From IMG/VR virus record IMGVR_UViG_3300032167_000010: a DNA stretch of 64,000 nucleotides; one strand, 5' to 3'. The notes beneath the pieces are model-generated. The model saw only the letters and a program-made list of their open reading frames with translations. It made no database searches and was not told the origin of the DNA. Below are positions 9,458 to 47,401 of the stretch, one piece after another. Each line of letters begins with the position of its first letter. The first letter of the stretch is position 1. The stretch is from a virus. Taxonomy: Duplodnaviria > Heunggongvirae > Uroviricota > Caudoviricetes. The position numbers were made by a program, and so were the translations under genes.

Positions 9458-12400
9458 ATGGCAAGTACAGGATTAAGCTATACGCTTATTAATAACGATA
9501 CTGAATATGAAGTAAGTGGCAAAGGATCTTGTTCTGATGACGTTATAATTATCCCTGATACATATAACGGTAAACCTGTCACAAGTATAGGCGAAGAAGC
9601 TTTTTCTAAGCGTTATTTTCAAGCTGTAGAAATTCCAAAAAGTGTAAAAAGAATAGGTGATAGTGCATTCAAATTATGCCCTACACTCAGTAGAGTAACA
9701 TTCACAACAGACAGTGCTTTAATAAGTATAGGTGCTAGCGCCTTTATGGAGTGTGAAAAGCTCGCAGACATAACTATACCAAACAGTGTAATAAGTATTG
9801 GTGATGGTGCACTCGCATATTGCTATAAATTACAGTGTAATATAGAAGGCAACCTAAAATATTTAGGAAATGAAAGTAATCCCTATTTATATTTAGAAGG
9901 ACCACAATACTTAACAATAGAATCAGCCACAATAAATTCTAGTTGCAGGTTTATAGGCTCTCATGCATTCGTGTATTGCGATGATTTAACAAGCATAACT
10001 ATACCAAACAGTATAACAAGTATAGGTGATCATGCGTTCTATGATTGCAAATCGTTAACAAGCATTGTTATTCCAGCAAGTGTAACAAGTATAGGTTCTT
10101 ATGCGTTCAATAATTGCAACTTACTCACAAGCATAGCAATTCCAGAAGGTGTAACAAGTATAGGTGATAGGGTGTTCGGTGGTTGCAGTAAATTAACAAG
10201 TATAGAAATTCCAAATAGTGTAACAAGTATAGGTAGTTCTGCGTTTTATTTTTGTACATCACTTAAAACAATAGAAATTCCAGCAAGCGTAACAAGTATA
10301 GGTAATCAGGCGTTCTATTACTGCACATCACTCACAAGTGTAACTTTTGAAGAAACCAGTCAGTTAACAAGTATAGGTTATCAGACGTTCTATAATTGCA
10401 ACTCACTTAAAACATTAGAAATTCCAGCAAGTGTAATAAATATAGGTAAAGAAGCTTTCATATACAGTGGTTTATCACGTACTGAAGAAGACGGTCTAGT
10501 CTATTTAACAGTAAATGATAATAAATATTGTATTTTAGCGAGTTCAAAATCAGCAAGTTTATCATCAAACACTACTATTAATATAAATACAAAATATATT
10601 ATGCCGGCTGCATTTACTGGGTGTACTTCGTTAAAAAGAATAGAAATTCAGAAGAATGTTATAAGTATAGGCGAAGAAGCCTTTTATGAATGTACTAACT
10701 TAGAAGTGGTCGTAATACAGTCTAGTAAAATAATAAGCATAGGTAGTAAAACTTTCTATAATTGTAAGGCACTTACTAGCATAACTACCCTTAACTCTGT
10801 AACAAGTATAGGTAATGATGCATTCTATAATTGCAACTCACTCACAACAGCTCCATTTGGAAAAAATAGTCAGTTAAAACACATTGGTGCTAGTGCATTC
10901 TATTATTGTGAAAGCTTAACAAGTATAACAATTCCAGAAGGCGTAACAAGTATAGGTGATTTTGCGTTCCTTAGGTGCCATTCGTTAACACAAATTAATT
11001 TCAATGCAAAAGATTGTGCAGATTTAAGGTCAAGTAGCAGGGTATTTGAGGAAGCAGGAAAAAATGGAACAGGAATAACTGTAACATTTGGAGAAAACAT
11101 AGAAAAAGTAATAAAAATCCCAGCATATTTATTCTATCAAGGTAGCGGTATTTATTATGCACCAAAAATAACAAATGTAATAATTGGAAAATGTGTAACA
11201 GGTATTGGTAATTATGCGTTTGAGTATTGCCCAGCACTCACAAACGTTACATTTGAAAAAGGTAGTCAGTTAACAAGTGTAGGTGAACATGCGTTCGAAA
11301 ATTGCATAGCACTTAAAGCAATAGAAATACCGGCAAGTGTAACAAGTATAGGTAATTCTGTGTTCAAAGGTTGCAGTAGTTTGACAAGAATGACCTTACC
11401 TTTTATTGGAGCAAACAAAATTAAAACAGCGCTTAGTGGATATGATACGGTTTTTGGCTATATATTTGGTTTTAAGACATCAACCAGTCCTTCCACTATA
11501 AGCGGAGCTACTTATCAATACTGTAATGGTTCTGGCACTGAGTACTATCATTACTATATACCTACGAGTATAAAATCAGTAACAATAACTGGTGGAGAAA
11601 GTATTAGCTATGATGCATTCTATAATTGCAGCTGGTTAACAAGTATAGTAATACCAAATACAATAACAAGTATAGGTAATCATGCGTTCTATAATTGTGC
11701 GTCACTCGCAGATATAATCATACCAAATAGTGTAGAAAGTATTGGCACATCTGTGTTTGAAGATTGTACTTCTTTAGTAGGTGTAATTATAGGAGACAGT
11801 GTAAAAGGCTTAGACTCTGATATATTCGCTGGCTGCAATAAATTAGCTAATGTTGTAATGGGCAGTAGTGTAACAAGTATAGGTCAACAGGCTTTTAAGG
11901 ATTGTAACTCACTAATAAGTGTGGTGATTGCTGAAGCCACAACAGATATAGCACCGGAAGCATTTAGTGGCTGTAGTTCACTAATAAGTGTGGTATTGCA
12001 AGGTGAAACACCTCCTACTGTGCATGACGACTCTTTTTCACATACTAATGAAAATATCAAATTTTACTGTTATTCAGAATCCCTAACAGATTATAAAAAT
12101 AGTTGGGTGCATTATAAAGATAACCTTATAGGTGATTCTCTAAAAGTTTCTTTTGCTAATAGTGCTAACGCACAAAAAAAATATTTTACTTCTCGAGACG
12201 AAGTCAGAGCTAAAATAGCAGAACTAGTACTAAGAATAAAGGCTTTAGATTCTTCTTCTAGTGTTGATGAAGACCGTTTAAACTCTTTGGTCGCTTATGA
12301 GAATGACGCCAATTGGGACGCATACTTAGCTAACCTTACAGGCGAGTCTTTAGACGTTTCTTTTGCTTATAGCGCGGATGCTCAGAAAAAATACTTCATT

Positions 12401-12469
12401 TCTCAAGAAGAGGCCAACGCTATAATAGCAGAACTAGAAGCTAGAATAGCAGCTTTAGCTAGCTCTTAA
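9458..12469 (+). CDS. BspA/TpLRR-family leucine-rich-repeat protein
   Basis: Many (I)PxSVTSIGxxAFxxCxxL repeats; C-terminal helical tail. Confidence 0.9.
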   Translation: MASTGLSYTLINNDTEYEVSGKGSCSDDVIIIPDTYNGKPVTSIGEEAFSKRYFQAVEIPKSVKRIGDSAFKLCPTLSRVTFTTDSALISIGASAFMECEKLADITIPNSVISIGDGALAYCYKLQCNIEGNLKYLGNESNPYLYLEGPQYLTIESATINSSCRFIGSHAFVYCDDLTSITIPNSITSIGDHAFYDCKSLTSIVIPASVTSIGSYAFNNCNLLTSIAIPEGVTSIGDRVFGGCSKLTSIEIPNSVTSIGSSAFYFCTSLKTIEIPASVTSIGNQAFYYCTSLTSVTFEETSQLTSIGYQTFYNCNSLKTLEIPASVINIGKEAFIYSGLSRTEEDGLVYLTVNDNKYCILASSKSASLSSNTTININTKYIMPAAFTGCTSLKRIEIQKNVISIGEEAFYECTNLEVVVIQSSKIISIGSKTFYNCKALTSITTLNSVTSIGNDAFYNCNSLTTAPFGKNSQLKHIGASAFYYCESLTSITIPEGVTSIGDFAFLRCHSLTQINFNAKDCADLRSSSRVFEEAGKNGTGITVTFGENIEKVIKIPAYLFYQGSGIYYAPKITNVIIGKCVTGIGNYAFEYCPALTNVTFEKGSQLTSVGEHAFENCIALKAIEIPASVTSIGNSVFKGCSSLTRMTLPFIGANKIKTALSGYDTVFGYIFGFKTSTSPSTISGATYQYCNGSGTEYYHYYIPTSIKSVTITGGESISYDAFYNCSWLTSIVIPNTITSIGNHAFYNCASLADIIIPNSVESIGTSVFEDCTSLVGVIIGDSVKGLDSDIFAGCNKLANVVMGSSVTSIGQQAFKDCNSLISVVIAEATTDIAPEAFSGCSSLISVVLQGETPPTVHDDSFSHTNENIKFYCYSESLTDYKNSWVHYKDNLIGDSLKVSFANSANAQKKYFTSRDEVRAKIAELVLRIKALDSSSSVDEDRLNSLVAYENDANWDAYLANLTGESLDVSFAYSADAQKKYFISQEEANAIIAELEARIAALASS

Positions 12470-12532
12470 AGTAAGGAGTAGAGTAAATGATAAGACATAA
12501 TATAAAATTAAAAGGTAAATTGGTGATTAATT

Positions 12533-13765
12533 ATGGCAGTAAAGAATATTAAAACAAGAATACAAAATAAGCATGATACCGAAGCTAACTGGCAACAAGC
12601 TACGAATTTCGTACCAATGGCTGGTGAAATAATCGTGTATGATGCTGACAGTACATATAGTTACGAGCGCTTTAAAATCGGTGATGGAAAAACTTTGGTT
12701 ATGAACCTGCCTTTTGCAGGAGGTGTTGATGAAACATCAGTTAAATTGTCAAGTGATTTATATACTTATACAGCTATCGGAAAAATTACAAGCGCGTCTA
12801 ATACAAGCCCTTACAAAGTGGCATCTAAAGGCGATACGCTAAAAACCGTTTTCAATACTGTATTTGGCACTCAACAAGACCAACAGCCTGCTATTACTAC
12901 AAGTAATGTAAATCTAAGTGTAGCTGCTGGAACTACTTCTTATGGTGGAGGTGAATATGGAACGACTGTAGCAAGCACCGATGTAACTATTACATTTACC
13001 CTAAATAATTCTGGTACTGCTCAGTATGGATATAGATGTGGCGCTACTAAAACTACAGGCAGTCAAACATTCTATTATCCCGTTACAAAACAAAATAATG
13101 CAGATATTAAAATTACGTTACCATCAGGAAAAACAGCTTCCGTAACAGCTGGTACTCTTGTGGCTACAAATAGTAATATACTTTATTGTAATTTTAATAG
13201 CAGTAAACAAGTTAAAATTAAAATTTCTCTAGCAGCTGGAAGCGTCACTACCAGTTCGCAGACACGCTATGGTCAAATTACGGGTGAAGTTACACTCGGT
13301 GCGGCTCAAAAAGAAAATCAGTTAACGAGTGGAACGCCTATTACTAAATTCTTAACTTATTTAGGTAGTGATGCCACTAATACAAGTGCTTTAAGTGGTG
13401 GAAATAAATCAAATACAGCTGGAAGTTATACTATTTCTGCGGGTTCTTATTCGCCTTATTATCTTGCAAGCACTTCTAGTAGCTTAGCATCAGTTGCAAA
13501 AAATGTCGCTACTAAATATACTTCTGGGGCGGTTAGTGTTACCTGCAGTGAACCTAGTTATATTTGGTTTTTGCTCGCACCTGGCACTAGCGGAACCAAA
13601 ACTATTCAATACGAAGCTCTCGGTCAATGGTACGAATTTAATGGTGGTACTACCGGTCCAGTAGACGTAACCCTTACACTAGACAGTGGCGCAACTGTAA
13701 CTTATAAAGGTTACCGTACCAATAAACAGGCGGCGGCAGGAACAACTTCATTTAAAATTGTTTAA
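12533..13765 (+). CDS. Tail/head fibre protein with N-terminal Mtd_N-like domain
   Basis: TEANW..GEIIVYD..RFKIGDG..LPF followed by Thr/Ser/Gly-rich beta domains. Confidence 0.65.
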   Translation: MAVKNIKTRIQNKHDTEANWQQATNFVPMAGEIIVYDADSTYSYERFKIGDGKTLVMNLPFAGGVDETSVKLSSDLYTYTAIGKITSASNTSPYKVASKGDTLKTVFNTVFGTQQDQQPAITTSNVNLSVAAGTTSYGGGEYGTTVASTDVTITFTLNNSGTAQYGYRCGATKTTGSQTFYYPVTKQNNADIKITLPSGKTASVTAGTLVATNSNILYCNFNSSKQVKIKISLAAGSVTTSSQTRYGQITGEVTLGAAQKENQLTSGTPITKFLTYLGSDATNTSALSGGNKSNTAGSYTISAGSYSPYYLASTSSSLASVAKNVATKYTSGAVSVTCSEPSYIWFLLAPGTSGTKTIQYEALGQWYEFNGGTTGPVDVTLTLDSGATVTYKGYRTNKQAAAGTTSFKIV

Positions 13766-30547: not shown

Positions 30548-32530
30548 ATGACTAATATTAAAAACATTCTTATTTCTCGTCGCATGCTTTTAGCTGATGG
30601 TTTTTCAGTAAGTAATTCTAAAATTGAAAATGCATACCTTAATGCTTTTTTACTTTCAAATTTTGGTATTGTTGTAAATAAGCCGGAACTTTTAACTAAA
30701 GAAATGGTTAAAGACATATCAGATGTTTATAAACTTAATGTTCCTAAATCTTATTTTGCAAATCCACAGGATACTAAGTTTTATACTGCTGAAGAACTTT
30801 TAATAGAACAATGTGTTTCATATTTCCTTGCTTACGGTGCGGAAGAATCACATGTTCACGTTTTTGATAAAAAACTTCCTGATTATCCTGTAGGAAACGA
30901 AATTAAGCTCCGCGAGTTTAAAATCTTAAATCCGGAAGAAGCGATTATAGAACTTGTTGCAATCACAAAAGCTTATGCTGAATATAAACGTCCTTGGAGT
31001 TTAGATGAACAAAATGAATTTTTAGCTCTTTACTATAATGGACAAGGTTATTATGACTTAAATACTATGCCACTTCTTTGCGGAGATAATGCTGTCTTTA
31101 TGTTAGATAAAGATGTAAACTTTGCACAGTTTTTATTTAAGAAAGATGTTGTGAAACTTTCTGTTGCAAAAGTAGGTGAATGTAAAGACCTCGTACTTGA
31201 TTCTGATACTAAAAAGCTTATTAAAGCAATTATTCCACTTGTTAAGGATTGTCCTATGTCTAAGAAACAAGCTAAGTTCTTTAATAAACTTGTTCAAATT
31301 ACTGGTGCAAAGGCAAAGAAAGTAGATAATAAACAATCACCTAATAAACTTGCCATTGAAAAAATTAAAGCAGGTGATATTATTGGTGCAGCTGACATTT
31401 TTGCTAAGAATGGTTCTCTTCTTGAGCGTAATCTTAAGTTTCTTCTTTCACGTGCAAATCCTATCGAAGCAGCAGTAATTCTTAGTATGCTCTCAAATAA
31501 AAATCCTACAGTGCTTTATCAACTTATATCTACTATTAATGCGGATAATGAAGAAGCTCGTACATTCTCTTTCTTTGCTAAAAATAAGGTTAAAACTCAC
31601 GCAGAGACTGAGTACGAAGCTCGTTGGAGAAAGTCTCGTTTGAATGACGCTACTAAGAAACTTGTCCATGATATTTGCTTCGAAAAAATTGCGGAACATT
31701 ATAAAGCCTCAGAAAAACTTGGTAAGGTATATATTGATTCTAAGTTCTATCGTGTAGCAATGCCAGTTAATACTTCTGCATCGGGTAAGGGTATAGACGT
31801 TCCTACGACTGGCACAAGACTTCCTATTACTGGTACTAAGATTCGTTCTTTTGTACACTGGGAGAATGCTTTCGATATTGACTCTTCTGTAATTCTTGAA
31901 AAAGAAGATGGTAGATTAGATTCTATAAACTATAGTAGTTATTATTCTCGTAATTATCAAGGTGTAGCTCGTTTTTCTGGAGATATTACAGGTTCTAAAG
32001 GTACTGAATACTTTGATTTAGATTTAGAATCATTAAAAAATCAAGGTATTAAAAGAGTGATATTTACTTTCCATGGTTTTTGTTCAACTCTTAATGAAGG
32101 TGAAATTTACTGTGGTTATCAAAACAAAGAGGACTTCAATACTAAAGCTTGGGACCCTAAAAATATTGAGCTTAAGATTCATGTTAAAGGTGATAAACGC
32201 GCTTATATAGCTTTTGCCGTGGACCTTGAAACTATGGAAATTGTAGTTCTTAATTTAATGCGTGACGACGACTCTCGTGTTGTTTCTTCTAAAGATTTTG
32301 AAGCTATTAAAGCTTTTATAGACCCTGCAAAACTTGAACTTAATATGGGTTTAATTGCTGAATGGCGTGGTGAAGTTGTAGAAACTCCTGAAGAAGCCGA
32401 CGTTGTTTTTGCTGATGACTATATTTCTAATGTTGAAAATCTTCCAGTTTCAGAAGATGGTTCAGCTAGAGCGCAGACTGTAATTCGTTCGTTTGATGTT
32501 GAGAAGCTTAACGCAATCGCAAATGTTTAA
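30548..32530 (+). CDS. Helical-domain + C-terminal TerD-like domain protein (candidate RNA-binding partner)
   Basis: 660 aa; FVHW..DIDSS..FSGDITG..GTEYFDLD resembles the TerD fold; recalled similarity to the MXAN_6230/SCO0854-like family is unverified. Confidence 0.55.
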   Translation: MTNIKNILISRRMLLADGFSVSNSKIENAYLNAFLLSNFGIVVNKPELLTKEMVKDISDVYKLNVPKSYFANPQDTKFYTAEELLIEQCVSYFLAYGAEESHVHVFDKKLPDYPVGNEIKLREFKILNPEEAIIELVAITKAYAEYKRPWSLDEQNEFLALYYNGQGYYDLNTMPLLCGDNAVFMLDKDVNFAQFLFKKDVVKLSVAKVGECKDLVLDSDTKKLIKAIIPLVKDCPMSKKQAKFFNKLVQITGAKAKKVDNKQSPNKLAIEKIKAGDIIGAADIFAKNGSLLERNLKFLLSRANPIEAAVILSMLSNKNPTVLYQLISTINADNEEARTFSFFAKNKVKTHAETEYEARWRKSRLNDATKKLVHDICFEKIAEHYKASEKLGKVYIDSKFYRVAMPVNTSASGKGIDVPTTGTRLPITGTKIRSFVHWENAFDIDSSVILEKEDGRLDSINYSSYYSRNYQGVARFSGDITGSKGTEYFDLDLESLKNQGIKRVIFTFHGFCSTLNEGEIYCGYQNKEDFNTKAWDPKNIELKIHVKGDKRAYIAFAVDLETMEIVVLNLMRDDDSRVVSSKDFEAIKAFIDPAKLELNMGLIAEWRGEVVETPEEADVVFADDYISNVENLPVSEDGSARAQTVIRSFDVEKLNAIANV

Positions 32531-32608: not shown

Positions 32609-32722
32609 AGAGCCAATGCTTATTTCTTTAGCCTTTTAAGCCGTGTGTCGTAGGTTCGAATCCTACCGTCAGCCTTCGGGTGGCGTAGCTCAGCGGTAGA
32701 GCAACGTAAATATAGCTTGGCC
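32609..32722 (+). ncRNA. Bulged-helix ncRNA copy 2 carrying a circularly permuted tRNA-Lys(UUU)-like domain (YrlA-like)
   Basis: Order is anticodon loop CTTTTAA, T arm, acceptor 3' strand, TTCG loop, acceptor 5' strand, D arm; closed by GCCAA/TTGGC. Confidence 0.85.
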
Positions 32723-32728
32723 AAAAAT

Positions 32729-32816
32729 CGGGGTGTGCTGAAACTGGCGAGACAGGGTGGACTTAAAATCCACTACATTAGAAACGTTGGTGGTTCGAAT
32801 CCACTCACCCCGACCA
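32729..32816 (+). tRNA. trnL: tRNA-Leu(TAA)
   Basis: Cloverleaf, GTGGA-CTTAAAA-TCCAC, long variable arm, CCA. Confidence 0.92.
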
Positions 32817-34162: not shown

Positions 34163-34510
34163 GTATATCTTGGATAAAATTCTAGATACCAAGAAACTTC
34201 GAATATATTGAATAAGAAGGCTGAGTCCGTCGGTACAAGGCAATATGAGAGAATGATCAACGGACTACTCTCAAAATTATTTTTTTGGGCTGGTCATAAG
34301 ATCTAGGTCCACCAATACGGGAGTTTTCCTGTTATTTAGTTGTTAGCTTAGTAAGTCGTAGGCCGGACAAATACGTGTAGCCCCCGGTTATTGCGAGAGT
34401 CGAACAGCGCAACGGGGTGGTTGGCAACAACTAGTCGAAAGATGTAGATAAGTTCATTACACGTGTTTATTTATAATACTCGATTCTCTCAAAGGAAACT
34501 AGAGAGACGT

Positions 34511-35263: not shown

Positions 35264-35339
35264 AGGGGTGTCGTATAGTTGGTTAGTACACAAGACTTTG
35301 ACTCTTGCAGGGTTAGTTCGAGTCTAGCCGCCCCTGCCA
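35264..35339 (+). tRNA. trnQ: tRNA-Gln(TTG)
   Basis: CAAGA-CTTTGAC-TCTTG, GCCA. Confidence 0.9.
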
Positions 35340-35428: not shown

Positions 35429-35549
35429 CACGACTTAGTTCATAGGTAAGAGCACCCAAATCCCAGGGAAGAGAGAAGCGTTGAAGCTGATTACTAGCTA
35501 GAATTGGCAGAGCTGAAGAGGAGCATCGTCGTAGGTGCAGTCGTGTCAA
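35429..35549 (+). ncRNA. Free-standing ~120-nt tRNA-like RNA, paralogue of the tRNA-Thr insert
   Basis: CACGACT/AGTCGTG acceptor-like stem, D arm, CCC-AAATCCCA-GGG hairpin, T-like arm. Confidence 0.7.
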
Positions 35550-35618: not shown

Positions 35619-35714
35619 ATGAAAAAGATTATTTTTGCCAAAACATTAAAAAATAACAATAGTAGTGTTATGCCATTTTATCGTAAAGCCAGAGACCCAG
35701 TATTCCAGTGTTAA
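35619..35714 (+). CDS. Putative 31-aa peptide MKKIIFAKTLKNNNSSVMPFYRKARDPVFQC
   Basis: AAGGAG RBS, downstream of a GCTAAATTA motif. Confidence 0.4.
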   Translation: MKKIIFAKTLKNNNSSVMPFYRKARDPVFQC

Positions 35715-35825
35715 GAATTTTTATAGTAGATAAAGTATCTTAGCGCTTGGGATTATAAAAAATTCTGAGCGCTTTTTATTTTTATTATTAAAATTTACAT
35801 GAGAGTATTGTATAATATATTATAA

Positions 35826-35959
35826 GCGCCTGTAGCTCAGTTGGCAGAGCACGTGACTTGTTTGAGTAGCATAAGTAATGCGATATTATGTGAGTTCAAA
35901 TCTTACCTCAAGCACCATTAATCACGGTGTCCCGAGTTCGAATCTCGGCAGGCGCACCA
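35826..35959 (+). tRNA. trnK: tRNA-Lys(TTT) interrupted at 34/35 by a 58-nt mini-tRNA (35860-35917)
   Basis: Exons of 34 nt and 42 nt give 76 nt with CGTGA-CTT|TTAA-TCACG. Confidence 0.9.
35860..35917 (+). ncRNA. Anticodon-arm-less mini-tRNA nested in tRNA-Lys
   Basis: GTTTGAG/CTCAAGC stem, D arm GCAT-AAGTA-ATGC, T arm GTGAG-TTCAAAT-CTTAC, ACCA. Confidence 0.88.
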
Positions 35960-40580: not shown

Positions 40581-40642
40581 TATCAGTTAGTGTACGGAGC
40601 ACTCCAATGGCAGAGTAAGTTCAATTCTTACAATGATAACCA
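40581..40642 (+). ncRNA. Free-standing anticodon-arm-less mini-tRNA
   Basis: TATCAGT/AATGATA-ACCA, D arm GTGT-ACGGA-GCAC, T arm GTAAG-TTCAATT-CTTAC. Confidence 0.7.
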
Positions 40643-41127: not shown

Positions 41128-41322
41128 GCTTCAGTAGCTCAACTGGCAGAGCAGCTGACTTCGTCGATTAGTTTAATTGGGAAAACAACCGAATCCCAGG
41201 TAAAAGACAACCTTTGATAACAATTACGATCAAATTGTTTAGGTTAAGATAAACAAGTTCAAATCTTGTATCGGCGTCCAGTAATCAGCAGGTTGATGGT
41301 TCAATTCCGTTCTGAAGCTCCA
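41128..41322 (+). tRNA. trnT: tRNA-Thr(TGT) interrupted at 34/35 by a 119-nt tRNA-like RNA (41162-41280)
   Basis: Exons of 34 nt and 42 nt give 76 nt with GCTGA-CTT|GTAA-TCAGC; acceptor GCTTCAG/CTGAAGC-TCCA. Confidence 0.9.
41162..41280 (+). ncRNA. tRNA-like RNA nested in tRNA-Thr
   Basis: CGTCGAT/ATCGGCG-TCCA, D arm GTTT..AAAC, T arm ACAAG-TTCAAAT-CTTGT. Confidence 0.87.
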
Positions 41323-44874: not shown

Positions 44875-44919
44875 ATATTGTATTATATAATATAAAAATA
44901 ATTATTGAGGTTAAATAAT

Positions 44920-46341
44920 ATGAGTTATTATGCTATTGTAACTGCTTTAAAAAACGTGCGTAAGCACCCTAATGCAGACAGACTTCAACTTGCCTCAGTA
45001 TTTGGTAATACTATTTGTGTTGACTTAACTTATACTGATGGCCAACTTGGTGTATATTTTCCAACAGGTGGACAGCTTTCAGTAGCTTTTGCTGAGGCAA
45101 ATAACTTGCTTCGTAAAAAAGATGCCGAAGGAAATAATATCGGTGGATATATGGACCCAGATAAAAGAAATGTAGCGGCTATTAAACTAAGAGGTGAGAA
45201 GTCTGATGGGCTTTTCCTTCCTTTGAATAGTCTCGAAACTTTTGGTGATATTTCTACTTTGAAGGCTGGCGACCGAATCGACGTGTTTAATGGTACAGAG
45301 ATTTGCACCAAGTACATACCTAAAATTAATATTAGACGTGGCAGTTTTTCTGAAGGAAATCGTACTAGAAAAACTAAGGCGCCTATTGCTCCTTTATTTG
45401 CAGAACACGCAGACACTGAACAGCTTGCCTATAACTTGGGTATGTTTAAGGTCGGTGATGAATTAGAGTTTACTCTAAAAATGCACGGGACTTCTCAACG
45501 TACCGGTCATCTTAAAGTTTTGACTGGTTATAAGAGAACTTTTTTTGATAAGCTTTTTAAAAGACCTGGCACACCTATTTATGATTGGGGCTATGTTTCT
45601 GGTACCCGTCGTGTAGTTCTTGATACTTTTGATGGTGGTTTCTACGGCTCAAATGAATTCAGAGAACAACATCATAATGCTTTTGTTGGAAAGCTTTGGA
45701 AGGGTGAAACTGTTTATTACGAAGTAGTTGGTTTTACTCATACTGGTGCGCCTATTATGGGTAATGGTAATAACGAAAAACTTGGTAAAGACTTTGTAAA
45801 GCAGTATGGTAAAGAAACTGTATTTAGCTACGGCTGTAATCCAACTGGTGAGTGCATTATGTGTGGTGAAGATGAACTTAGCGCTTTTAAAGTTCCAGTT
45901 GATGTTCCAATATCAGATACTTATGTTTACCGTATGACAATGACTAATGAAGATGGTGAAATTGTTGAGTATACGCCAGACTTTATAAGGTATCGTTGTG
46001 AACAAATGGGCGTTAAATGTGTTCCTGTTTTCGGTAAAGCTACAATTAGTGAAGATAGACTACATTTTGTAACACAAGACGGTTATGACCATGACTATTT
46101 AATTGGTGACGGTACTATTGGTGATATGGTAGTAAAGTGTGCTGAAGACTTTTATGCTGGACCTGACCCTGTGGGTAAGACACACACTAGAGAAGGTGTT
46201 GTTGTTCGTATTACTAATAGACCTAAATTCGCAGCAGTAAAACATAAAAACTTTGAATTTAAGGTCTTAGAAGGTATCATTTCTGAAAAGCTTACAGAAT
46301 CAACCACAGAAATAGCAGAAGATGTTCTTGCGGAAATGTAA
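44920..46341 (+). CDS. ATP-dependent RNA ligase (DRB0094/Rnl2-like) with N-terminal OB-fold tRNA-binding-like domain
   Basis: N-terminal HPNADRL..IKLRGEKSDG; nucleotidyltransferase motifs TLKMHGTS, YYEVVG, REGVVVR, KHKNFEF. Confidence 0.85.
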   Translation: MSYYAIVTALKNVRKHPNADRLQLASVFGNTICVDLTYTDGQLGVYFPTGGQLSVAFAEANNLLRKKDAEGNNIGGYMDPDKRNVAAIKLRGEKSDGLFLPLNSLETFGDISTLKAGDRIDVFNGTEICTKYIPKINIRRGSFSEGNRTRKTKAPIAPLFAEHADTEQLAYNLGMFKVGDELEFTLKMHGTSQRTGHLKVLTGYKRTFFDKLFKRPGTPIYDWGYVSGTRRVVLDTFDGGFYGSNEFREQHHNAFVGKLWKGETVYYEVVGFTHTGAPIMGNGNNEKLGKDFVKQYGKETVFSYGCNPTGECIMCGEDELSAFKVPVDVPISDTYVYRMTMTNEDGEIVEYTPDFIRYRCEQMGVKCVPVFGKATISEDRLHFVTQDGYDHDYLIGDGTIGDMVVKCAEDFYAGPDPVGKTHTREGVVVRITNRPKFAAVKHKNFEFKVLEGIISEKLTESTTEIAEDVLAEM

Positions 46342-46353
46342 TAAGAGGTTTAT

Positions 46354-46605
46354 ATGAGCAAAAATACTAATAGTACAAATGGTGGAATTGGAGTAAGTAT
46401 GGTGTTATTTTTAATTTTTTTAGTTTTGAAACTTGTTGGGGTTATTAATTGGTCATGGTGGTGGGTGACTTCTCCACTTTGGATTACTACTAGTATCATA
46501 AGTTTAGTAATCGTAGTAGCATATATTTATTGTTGTATTGATGATGCTAAAGAAAGGCGCAGAATCAACAAATCAAGACGAGGTAATAAGAATGAAAAAG
46601 ACTAA
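46354..46605 (+). CDS. Small membrane protein
   Basis: LVLKLVGVINWSWWWVTSPLWI; two transmembrane segments. Confidence 0.7.
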   Translation: MSKNTNSTNGGIGVSMVLFLIFLVLKLVGVINWSWWWVTSPLWITTSIISLVIVVAYIYCCIDDAKERRRINKSRRGNKNEKD

Positions 46606-47401
46606 AGATTCACTTGGCGATCGCATGAAGGAGTTTTATGAGAATCGTTCTAAGATGTACCTCACAAGACGAACTCCTGTAATTATTCGTTTAGATGGTA
46701 AGGCTTTTCACAGCTTTACAAAAGGTTTTAAGAGACCTTACGATGAAATCTTCCATGAAGCAATGAATAACACAATGAAGTATCTTTGTGCTAATATTCA
46801 GGGTTGTAAACTTGGTTATACGCAGTCTGACGAGATTACACTTCTCTTGACTGACTATACTACTCTTACAACTGATGCTTGGTTTGGTTATGGCGTTCAG
46901 AAAATGTGCTCTATTGCAGCTTCGATGGCGACTTTAATGTTTAATAAGTATTTTAGAACTGCCGTTAATCGCCACTTTGAGGGCGCTATTGGCATGGATG
47001 ACTACCACAAGACCATGTGCCTAGCTCGTGATAAAGGCGCAATGTTTGATGCCCGTTGTTTTAATATTCCAAAAGAAGAAGTAACTAACTGCTTTATTTG
47101 GAGGCAGCAAGACGCAACTCGAAATGCTATTCAAATGTTAGGTCAAACTCATTTTTCTCATAGAGAATTACAAGGTAAAAGTTGCAATGATATTCAAGAC
47201 ATGTTGATGTTGCAAAAAGGTATTAATTTTAACGATATGCCTATTGAATTCAAGCGTGGTGTTTGTTGCATTAAAAAAGAAGTTGAATGCACTGATAGAC
47301 TTATAGGTTATAAGCATGATTGGGTAATAGATACAGAGATTCCAATTTTTACTCAGGATAGAAATTATATTGAACAATATTTACTAGAAAAAGAAATCTA
47401 A
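46592..47401 (+). CDS. thg1: tRNA(His) guanylyltransferase Thg1-like protein (3'-5' polymerase)
   Basis: GDRMKEFYE, IRLDGKAFH, YTQSDEI, FDARCF and WRQQDATRN motifs. Confidence 0.9.
   Translation: MKKTKDSLGDRMKEFYENRSKMYLTRRTPVIIRLDGKAFHSFTKGFKRPYDEIFHEAMNNTMKYLCANIQGCKLGYTQSDEITLLLTDYTTLTTDAWFGYGVQKMCSIAASMATLMFNKYFRTAVNRHFEGAIGMDDYHKTMCLARDKGAMFDARCFNIPKEEVTNCFIWRQQDATRNAIQMLGQTHFSHRELQGKSCNDIQDMLMLQKGINFNDMPIEFKRGVCCIKKEVECTDRLIGYKHDWVIDTEIPIFTQDRNYIEQYLLEKEI

Follow-up and report, generated by a model that had tools for sequence, protein, structure and literature searches.

Members of a tRNA-shaped RNA family in phage tRNA arrays, as free-standing genes and as an intron of tRNA-Thr(UGU)

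A 64,000-nucleotide stretch of virus DNA (Caudoviricetes, IMG/VR record IMGVR_UViG_3300032167_000010; the window) carries at 35429-35549 an element that sequence comparison identifies as a real member of a tRNA-shaped RNA family carried in the tRNA arrays of large phages. A second copy, the insert, is lodged between U34 and G35 of tRNA-Thr(UGU) in the same window and is a member of the same family in intron form. Twenty-two distinct members of 95-125 nt were identified, in viral contigs from about 70 kb to 416 and 554 kb and in a few short metagenome fragments. The reading that we favour, with a probability of about 0.6, is that the element is a stable, non-decoding RNA of a conserved phage family, a tRNA mimic acting through a short hairpin loop and the purine linkers beside it.

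Homology, fold and distribution of the family

In the common fold a 7-bp acceptor is followed by a D arm and then, replacing the anticodon arm, by a stub of 3 bp that closes the 8-nt loop RAAUC(C/A)(C/A)A; next come the linker A-N-R-AGA, a variable hairpin, GAAGAU, a T arm and U73, often followed by CCA. The pairings listed in the initial annotation for both window copies were all present when the sequence was read directly (Table 1), with two amendments. The outer stem of the insert, given as AACC/GGTT, stands but has 5 bp and so one pair beyond the annotated count, and the T arm given for the free copy is a hairpin at the T position that is not a canonical T arm. Both window copies have a D arm of 4 bp, a single unpaired base before the stub, and a bipartite variable arm whose internal loop contains TTGA. 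The variable arm of the free copy consists of an outer stem AGC/GCT, a GTTGAA internal loop and an inner stem GCTGATT/AATTGGC.

In a model-fitted alignment of the 22 members 95.0% of 522 cells were paired, 20 of 24 pairs had changes on both sides, and the covariation score was 0.80 relative to 0.22 in shuffles, none of 500 shuffles reaching the observed value. As a control, 37-44% of cells were paired when the 3' partners were slid by 1-3 columns. The first 11 sequences in an unfitted MAFFT alignment gave five helices with 94% of cells paired and 18 of 24 pairs changed on both sides; again none of 500 shuffles reached the covariation and slid partners were 35-44% paired. The same five helices were returned by RNAalifold from an unfitted MAFFT alignment with no structure supplied. 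Covariation was seen at every acceptor pair and every T-stem pair of the 22 members, and the inner variable arm was compensated between close relatives (GCTGATT/AATTGGC, GCTGATT/AATCAGT, GTTGGTT/AGCCAGC, GTTTCT/AGAAAC). The pairings proposed initially are therefore borne out by further homologues.

Members have an invariant tRNA core of U8, A9, G10, U12 paired with A23, and A14, which are classical core positions involved in the tertiary pairs of tRNA. The canonical features present and covarying were the 7-bp acceptor, U8, the D arm with A14 and G18G19, the T arm and the discriminator, and a canonical T loop was found in two of three subtypes (A and C, not B). At the stub, two C-G pairs at the base were conserved and the loop R-A-A-U-C-(C/A)-(C/A)-A occurred in all 22 members; the linker A-N-R-A-G-A was likewise conserved and GAAGAU or GAAGAG preceded the T arm. 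The variable hairpin ranged from 14 to 65 nt. At the 3' end U73 and C74 were each present in 21 of 22 members and A76 in 20, with the full CCA encoded in 11.

The first scans fixed the loop and the linker and later scans freed each in turn. Freeing RAAU gave no new true member, freeing CCCA gave two loop variants (AAATCACA in L291 and L293, GAATCCAA in L294 and L305), and freeing the linker gave members with ACAAGA and AUAAGA. Since the true members from the freed scans contained only RAAU with C(C/A)(C/A)A, and A-N-R-AGA, the conservation is real rather than an artefact of the search. At the foot of the variable arm the linkers could conceivably pair as tandem sheared G.A; the layout in subtypes B and C, with GA next to the stem on its 5' side and GAA followed by GA on its 3' side, would fit the k-turn consensus.

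A 5-bp anticodon stem with a 7-nt loop and U33 was not present in any of the 22 members, which have 3 bp and 8 nt. Eight-nucleotide anticodon loops are known in frameshift suppressors, and an unusual decoding tRNA for frameshifting or recoding, with the stub loop as an extended anticodon loop, was considered on that ground; some members are also reported by ARAGORN as tRNA-??? and the insert lies above the Rfam tRNA threshold. This reading is very improbable, as the 3-bp stem places the loop too near the elbow, no U33-like turn is in register and the natural loop variants (CACA, CCAA) would alter the anticodon. The window open reading frames (ORFs) are moreover long and open under the standard code, and cysteine is the only amino acid for which the window lacks a tRNA, and some carriers do have a tRNA-Cys.

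The free copy and the insert were identical in 66 of 124 columns of a MAFFT alignment. A covariance model built from eight insert-type sequences only, with no subtype-B member (R2), recognised the window free copy with an E of 8e-9 and scored every subtype-B member at 49.7-57.4 bits, compared with 30-36 bits for the best genuine tRNAs in the same sequences. Scores so far above those of tRNAs indicate homology of the free copy and the tRNA-Thr insert beyond general tRNA likeness. The other model, R1, gave 65-102 bits for members and at most 38 bits for all tRNAs in the window and nine contigs searched whole. The best-scoring real tRNAs for R1 or R2 were often tRNA-Thr (window 34511, T4, L291), and also tRNA-Lys and tRNA-Ala, which is a weak hint that the family may have originated from tRNA-Thr.

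The free copy matched no family in Rfam 15, even at E<=10 with permissive filters, which upholds the proposal of a new family. For the insert locus the only Rfam match reported was the tRNA model RF00005, with 32.4 bits for the insert alone (gathering score 29) and 45.3 bits for the whole split gene (41128-41319). Full-text searches of the literature gave no description of an RNA family with a RAAUCCCA stub. The family length of about 120 nt first suggested holds for the window copies (121 and 119 nt) but not for the family as a whole.

The window free copy has a defective T loop, no CCA and a non-significant single-sequence fold, features that would suit a chance resemblance or a tRNA pseudogene in decay. 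For the family as a whole this explanation is already refuted and it is scarcely credible for the element: 22 distinct members occur in unrelated phages, their loops are invariant and each helix shows compensatory changes, and in the window the shared 12-mer CCNAATCCCAGG is found exactly twice, at the free copy and at the insert, with 0.26 occurrences expected.

An exact-pattern scan of IMG/VR with the common loop and linker gave L001 first, and was followed by looser scans, metagenome contigs and the models; the metagenome pattern scan contained at least four genuine members among the 120 matches listed. All loci examined lie in phage tRNA arrays, and where checked the member has the same orientation as the array. 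Whole-contig R1 searches of nine IMG/VR contigs gave a single strong match each (78-102 bits), followed by ordinary tRNAs at 35 bits or less. Among 11 loci examined, tRNA-Gln was directly upstream in seven and tRNA-Lys(UUU) adjacent in six. Twenty of the 22 members were free-standing genes, and selection on a function independent of being an intron, as first proposed, is supported on that account.

Three subtypes were distinguished. Subtype A (ACC-GAAUCCCA-GGU, AAAAGAC, canonical T loop) includes both intron copies and the free copies L003, L008, L016, L019, L216, L294 and L460. Subtype B (CCC-AAAUCCCA-GGG, AAGAGAG, odd T loop) includes the window free copy, L006, L010, L191, L212 and L291, with L002 and L014 intermediate. 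Subtype C (CCC-AAAUCCCA-GGG, AUAAGAGA, canonical T loop) consists of L462, L486, L499 and L491. The window has one subtype-B gene and one subtype-A intron, and its two copies are old paralogues rather than the result of a recent duplication.

No member was found in the GenBank phage collection by blastn in distant mode with one subtype-A and one subtype-B query, and megablast of the whole tRNA array against that collection gave a tRNA-sized match only. A pattern scan of GTDB representatives contained none genuine among the 120 matches listed, and R1 on 5 and 151 Clostridia genomes, with the best 24 candidates of each scored, gave nothing; neither result is evidence of absence.

The insert in tRNA-Thr(UGU)

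A three-way alignment of the window, L001 and G007 gave an unambiguous insertion point, CUU|GUAA, that separates U34 from G35; neither junction has repeated bases. The first and last bases of the intron are therefore +1 of its own acceptor and the A of the CCA that it encodes. L001, in the 144-kb contig G001 (44% G+C), has a tRNA-Thr(UGU) split at the identical point by a 96-nt form of the insert, in which the acceptor, D arm, stub and linker are near-identical to those of the window while the variable hairpin is short and unrelated. These were the only two intron forms among the 22 members. Both split genes form perfect exon cloverleaves despite different acceptor stems (GCTTCAG and GCTGGCG), and these compensated changes between the exons of two very different phages count in favour of the reading preferred here. 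G007, a 220-kb contig that is 96% complete, is syntenic with the window, with many proteins 40-97% identical; it has a subtype-B free copy at the same place and an uninterrupted tRNA-Thr(UGU) beside the same tRNA-Met. In an R1 search of the whole of G001 the intron was the sole copy, and thus an intron can be the sole source of the RNA.

Group I tRNA introns are about 200 nt or more with a P1-P9 core, a U ending the 5' exon and a G as last intron base. The insert does not fit this known kind of bacterial tRNA intron: it is 119 nt (96 nt in L001), its boundaries, set by the empty site in G007, leave the A of CCA as its last base, and it matched no intron family in Rfam, even at E<=10. Between the anticodon stem and the intron acceptor stem lie CUU (3 nt) on the 5' side and U CCA GUAA (8 nt) on the 3' side, and no bulge-helix-bulge of the archaeal or eukaryal kind, with a 3-nt bulge on either side of a 4-bp helix, was evident at the splice sites by inspection of the sequence. 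RNase P would account for the 5' cut. An endonucleolytic cut exactly after an encoded CCA is an unusual 3' pathway in Bacillus-type hosts, where exonucleases usually trim precursors that contain CCA, and such trimming would remove the 3' exon. Among seven family-bearing contigs, a tblastn homologue of the window RNA ligase (44905-46341) occurred only in G001 (39% over 476 aa); its restriction to the other intron carrier is one point in support of rejoining of the split tRNA-Thr by the ligase.

The main rival explanation is that the family is a selfish tRNA-shaped mobile element that moves from one tRNA array to another and invades anticodon loops, for instance through recombination stimulated by the GIY-YIG homing endonucleases of these phages, and is tolerated through removal by tRNA-end processing and the phage RNA ligase, with the free copies landed and functionless. 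It explains the intron polymorphism well, that is the intron in the window and the clean empty site in the intact tRNA-Thr of syntenic G007, and also the same insertion point and identical intron acceptor stem in two otherwise unrelated phages (34% and 44% GC) whose exons differ. The sporadic occurrence of the RNA (3 of 50 contigs bearing a Thg1-like enzyme), the GIY-YIG genes common to five carriers and the free paralogue of a second tRNA-shaped intron of the window, in tRNA-Lys, also fit. Single copy number, synteny and the invariant loop are explained poorly. One copy per contig searched with conserved synteny is unlike a proliferating element, the stub loop and linkers are unneeded for tRNA-end processing yet are the most conserved part of the free copies, the two introns have unrelated variable arms (44 and 14 nt), so that transfer was not recent, and no mobility function is encoded by the element. 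A mobile element is considered unlikely.

Table 1 Coordinates of the free copy, the insert and selected surrounding genes in the window
Feature	Position	Strand	Basis
Free-standing member, subtype B	35429..35549	+	sequence; R1 81.4 bits; R2 50.7 bits; no Rfam match
Free copy acceptor CACGACT/AGTCGTG	35429-35435 / 35539-35545	+	sequence
Free copy U8 A9, then D arm GTTC/GAGC	D arm 35438-35453	+	sequence
Free copy stub hairpin CCC-AAATCCCA-GGG	35455-35468, loop AAATCCCA 35458-35465	+	sequence
Free copy linker AAGAGA (AAGAGAG)	35469-35476	+	sequence
Free copy bipartite variable arm	35477-35514	+	sequence
Free copy GAAGAGGA segment after variable arm	35515-35522	+	sequence
Free copy T-position hairpin, non-canonical, GCATC/GGTGC with 6-nt loop GTCGTA	35523-35538	+	sequence
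Free copy discriminator T, then CAA	35546, then 35547-35549	+	sequence
tRNA-Gln(UUG), directly upstream of free copy	35264..35339	+	ARAGORN
tRNA-Lys(UUU), next tRNA downstream of free copy	35826..35959	+	sequence, ARAGORN
tRNA-Thr(UGU) 5' exon, ends C32 U33 U34	41128..41161	+	RF00005; alignment to intronless G007 gene
Insert, subtype A, intron in tRNA-Thr(UGU)	41162..41280	+	sequence; R1 100 bits; empty site in G007
Insert acceptor CGTCGAT/ATCGGCG	41162-41168 / 41270-41276	+	sequence
Insert D arm	41171-41186	+	sequence
Insert stub hairpin ACC-GAATCCCA-GGT	41188-41201, loop GAATCCCA 41191-41198	+	sequence
Insert linker AAAAGAC	41202-41208	+	sequence
Insert variable arm, AACCT/AGGTT and AACAATT/AATTGTT	41209-41245	+	sequence
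Insert AAGATAA	41246-41252	+	sequence
Insert canonical T arm ACAAG-TTCAAAT-CTTGT	41253-41269	+	sequence
Insert T, then CCA	41277, then 41278-41280	+	sequence
tRNA-Thr(UGU) 3' exon, starts G35 U36, ends in encoded CCA	41281..41322	+	sequence, RF00005, G007
ATP-dependent RNA ligase	44905..46341	+	phrog_968, E 6e-61; weak Pfam RNA_ligase
Thg1-like 3'-5' nucleotidyltransferase	46538..47401	+	PF04446, E 2e-31

Possible role, candidate partners and neighbouring features

We infer that the RNA is expressed, processed, non-decoding and recognised by a partner. Its upper half is that of an ordinary tRNA (7-bp acceptor, U8, A9, A14, U12-A23, D arm, T arm, U73 and often CCA), and the RNA is therefore probably cut from the tRNA-array transcript and matured at its ends by the tRNA machinery of the cell, that is by RNase P at the 5' end, 3' trimming and addition or repair of CCA. 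The stub loop and purine linkers would be the conserved 'business end' that docks a protein or RNA partner. The acceptor sequence varies freely, which implies that nothing reads it, and the tolerance of 14-65 nt in the variable arm suggests that this arm points to solvent. A conserved core with a near-invariant loop and linkers is the pattern expected of a tRNA body kept for processing and stability that presents a recognition element at the site of the anticodon arm. The single strong match per contig on the array strand, in a recurrent neighbourhood of tRNA-Gln, the member and tRNA-Lys, is gene-like rather than parasite-like. Occurrence of a member as an intron suggests that the same RNA can be delivered by a stand-alone gene or by an intron.

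The tRNAs and RNA-repair enzymes of large phages are thought to counter host defences that attack tRNAs. The molecule may act as a tRNA mimic, decoy or cofactor in this tRNA-centred conflict, although confidence in a specific role in attack and repair is low. More speculatively, the stub loop, perhaps with a k-turn-like G.A motif, might capture a host defence factor that targets tRNA or recruit phage RNA-repair enzymes as a trans-acting effector, and a protein-only splicing route, with cuts at the tRNA ends and joining by the phage ATP-dependent ligase, might couple release of the effector to tRNA-Thr(UGU); this combined scheme is tentative and is held to be doubtful.

Several observations weigh against the favoured reading of a stable mimic. 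Recognition by RNase P and the CCA-adding enzyme is less certain for subtype B, whose T loop is not canonical, with the D-loop GG missing from some members. The window free copy departs from its nearest relatives (L191, L212, L006 and L010, with a 7-nt loop and a TCCA end) by its 6-nt T-position loop and by a CAA tail peculiar to the window, and it could be decaying. Single-sequence thermodynamic folding was not significant relative to shuffles for either copy (z -1.1 and -1.9), and the case therefore rests on comparison rather than energetics. The searches reached every member by way of part of the loop motif and may have overlooked more divergent relatives. Carriers have only one protein widely in common at high identity, the Thg1-like enzyme, and it is not confined to them.

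Candidate partners were sought among the proteins and RNAs of the carriers. The Thg1-like enzyme, which is widespread in phages of this class, was present in six of eight RNA-bearing genomes at 57-75% identity; it was rejected as a specific partner, the RNA being present in only 3 of 50 Thg1-bearing IMG/VR contigs and in 1 of 21 near-complete ones. Other proteins common to carriers were a polynucleotide kinase-HD, cREC_REC, an RlaP nucleotidyltransferase, GIY-YIG, gyrase B and an endolysin, which are generic RNA-repair or phage genes. G001 (91.8-97 kb; L325 11826-13858 onward), G002, G003 and G005 have in common an RNA-repair gene set of a P-loop polynucleotide kinase with an HD domain, cREC_REC (cyclic-phosphate processing receiver), an RlaP nucleotidyltransferase and a metallophosphoesterase, joined by an RNA ligase in G001.

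An ORF of about 31 codons with a Shine-Dalgarno sequence and a common ...(A/V)MPF(F/Y)... motif, then a terminator-like hairpin (35742-35773 in the window), follows the member in the window (35620-35715, + strand), in L285 of G007 (about 12585-12680, - strand) and in L293 (about 2588-2686, + strand). The hairpin contains UGGGAUU (35748-35754), complementary to the stub loop, and G007 retains GGGAUU. A kissing loop between the two was rejected: the stub loop of L293 is AAAUCACA with an unrelated corresponding hairpin loop, and TGGGATT is not enriched in the window (8 found, 5.9 expected). The arrangement of member, ORF and hairpin would also suit a cis-acting processing signal, or 'tRNA punctuation', in which the fold would serve only to bring in RNase P and 3' processing and so set the ends of neighbouring RNAs such as the mRNA of ORF 35620-35715. 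In most other phages, however, tRNAs abut the member on both sides without such an ORF, and a signal of this kind would not need an invariant stub loop, linkers or an encoded CCA, as any ordinary tRNA would do; we regard it as improbable.

The window is phage-like with 34% G+C, all large ORFs are on the + strand, and its genes are preceded by Shine-Dalgarno sequences. The endolysin is closest to those of gut Clostridia phages. The tRNA array contains 25 ARAGORN genes between 32.7 and 41.3 kb, with the RNA ligase, the Thg1-like enzyme and a calcineurin-type phosphoesterase downstream.

Other unusual RNAs were noted in the arrays. The window tRNA-Lys(UUU) at 35826-35959 is split between U34 and U35 by a 58-nt mini-tRNA (35860-35917) that has an acceptor (GTTTGAG/CTCAAGC), a D arm, a T arm, A and CCA without an anticodon arm; ARAGORN miscalls the split gene as tRNA-Leu(caa), and a free look-alike with almost exactly the same T arm is located at 40581-40642 (+). 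A sub-threshold DUF3800-XI RNA (32.9 bits, threshold 37.8, E 2.5e-4) is located inside the array at 34286-34331 (+). A weak Rfam YrlA match (35.7 bits, gathering score 69, E 7e-5) lies at 32626-32729 (+), immediately before tRNA-Leu(UAA); Pfam and PHROGs searches of the adjacent 660-aa ORF (30548-32530) were both empty and showed no TROVE/Ro60 domain.

Further examples were seen in other genomes. A conserved non-coding block (ctggttataatatcggcttgatatatg ... gcgccctgc.ccgaggcgcccaa ... ttcaccttaagcaacttctgt) just upstream of tRNA-Lys(UUU) in two relatives of the window phage, L285 (about 12330-12470, - strand) and L293 (about 2790-2905, + strand), may be another structured RNA or a promoter region. 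L285 of G007 also has an ARAGORN tRNA with a 4-base anticodon (tcac; 11667-11755, - strand) beside a 160-nt Rfam tRNA span (11763-11922, - strand; 34 bits) that could represent one more interrupted tRNA gene. A 141-nt weak R1 match of 32.6 bits (G004:C1:38543-38683, locus L030) and a 96-nt 'tRNA-Phe(aaa)' directly after the family member of G002 (L028, 1622-1717) look like further oversized or interrupted tRNA genes. The 144-kb intron-carrying phage has a tmRNA with the tag DNSYFENHLAA within its tRNA array (L001, 2009-2347, + strand).

Comparison with known tRNA-like RNAs

The tRNA-like introns described as 'enigmatic' in Lak megaphages split tRNA genes, including tRNA-Thr(TGT), in the anticodon loop, and like the window insert are highly conserved between genomes, polymorphic in presence and absence, and without an Rfam family (Devoto et al. 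2019, PMC6784885). The idea of a phage tRNA-Thr intron that holds a tRNA is thus already published, for a family of other sequence. In the Lak Thr intron of Table S6 a 5' hairpin and an ATTAAA leader precede the tRNA-like body, the 'anticodon' arm is long and A/U, and there is no RAAUCCCA stub, unlike in the window insert; the printed Lak Thr, Tyr, Phe and Gly introns differ in architecture from the present family (PMC6784885). The string AATCCCAGG was absent from the portion of the supplement text examined. The Lak introns are reported just after the anticodon rather than at 34/35, and free-standing paralogues are not reported for them (PMC6784885), whereas the present family occurs mostly as free genes. 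The two are tied by concept only and not by sequence. Subtype-C members were found in megaphage-sized IMG/VR contigs (L462, 416 kb; L486, 554 kb), the latter within the reported Lak range.

The rnaC and rnaD genes of T4 (species 1 and 2 RNA) encode stable RNAs of about 120-140 nt, co-oriented within a phage tRNA cluster as in this family, and rnaC likewise has a tRNA-like 3' part. They are without the stub loop or linkers, and homology was rejected, R1 giving at most 17.3 bits on rnaC (L286) and nothing on rnaD. We know of no role assigned to the small non-tRNA RNAs of phage tRNA clusters since the T4 species 1 and 2 RNAs. The tRNA fold of YrlA is circularly permuted: the molecule ends in the Ro-binding helix, a loop closes the acceptor and there is no CCA. 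The ends of the present family, in contrast, are tRNA ends and the topology is unpermuted, and an Rfam search gave no RF02553 match at 35429-35549 or 41162-41280. Like the present family as read here, YrlA (RF02553; Chen et al. 2014, PMC4201824) is a non-decoding tRNA mimic, of about 100-130 nt, that occurs in bacteria and phages with genes for RNA repair and quality control.

Class II tRNAs (Leu, Ser, Tyr), which have long variable arms, resemble the family in their canonical tertiary core and in a fifth arm that separates the anticodon arm from the T arm. Their anticodon arm has 5 bp and 7 nt whereas that of the family is replaced by 3 bp and 8 nt, with 7-nt purine linkers on either side of the variable arm. 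Engineered 'tRNA scaffold' RNAs and mascRNA use a tRNA body for RNase P or 3'-end processing and stability, the anticodon arm being replaced or irrelevant. Those are artificial or eukaryotic, while the family described here is a natural phage one with a conserved payload loop.

The present RNAs are a new family within the known kind of tRNA-like phage RNAs, well supported, easily recognised and with a clear candidate functional site, although annotation currently misses their genes or lists them as undetermined tRNAs (ARAGORN). The 'tRNA inside tRNA' intron is a copy of an RNA that lives mostly as a free gene, which offers a handle on the origin of tRNA introns in bacterial viruses and on whether an excised intron may itself be the product.

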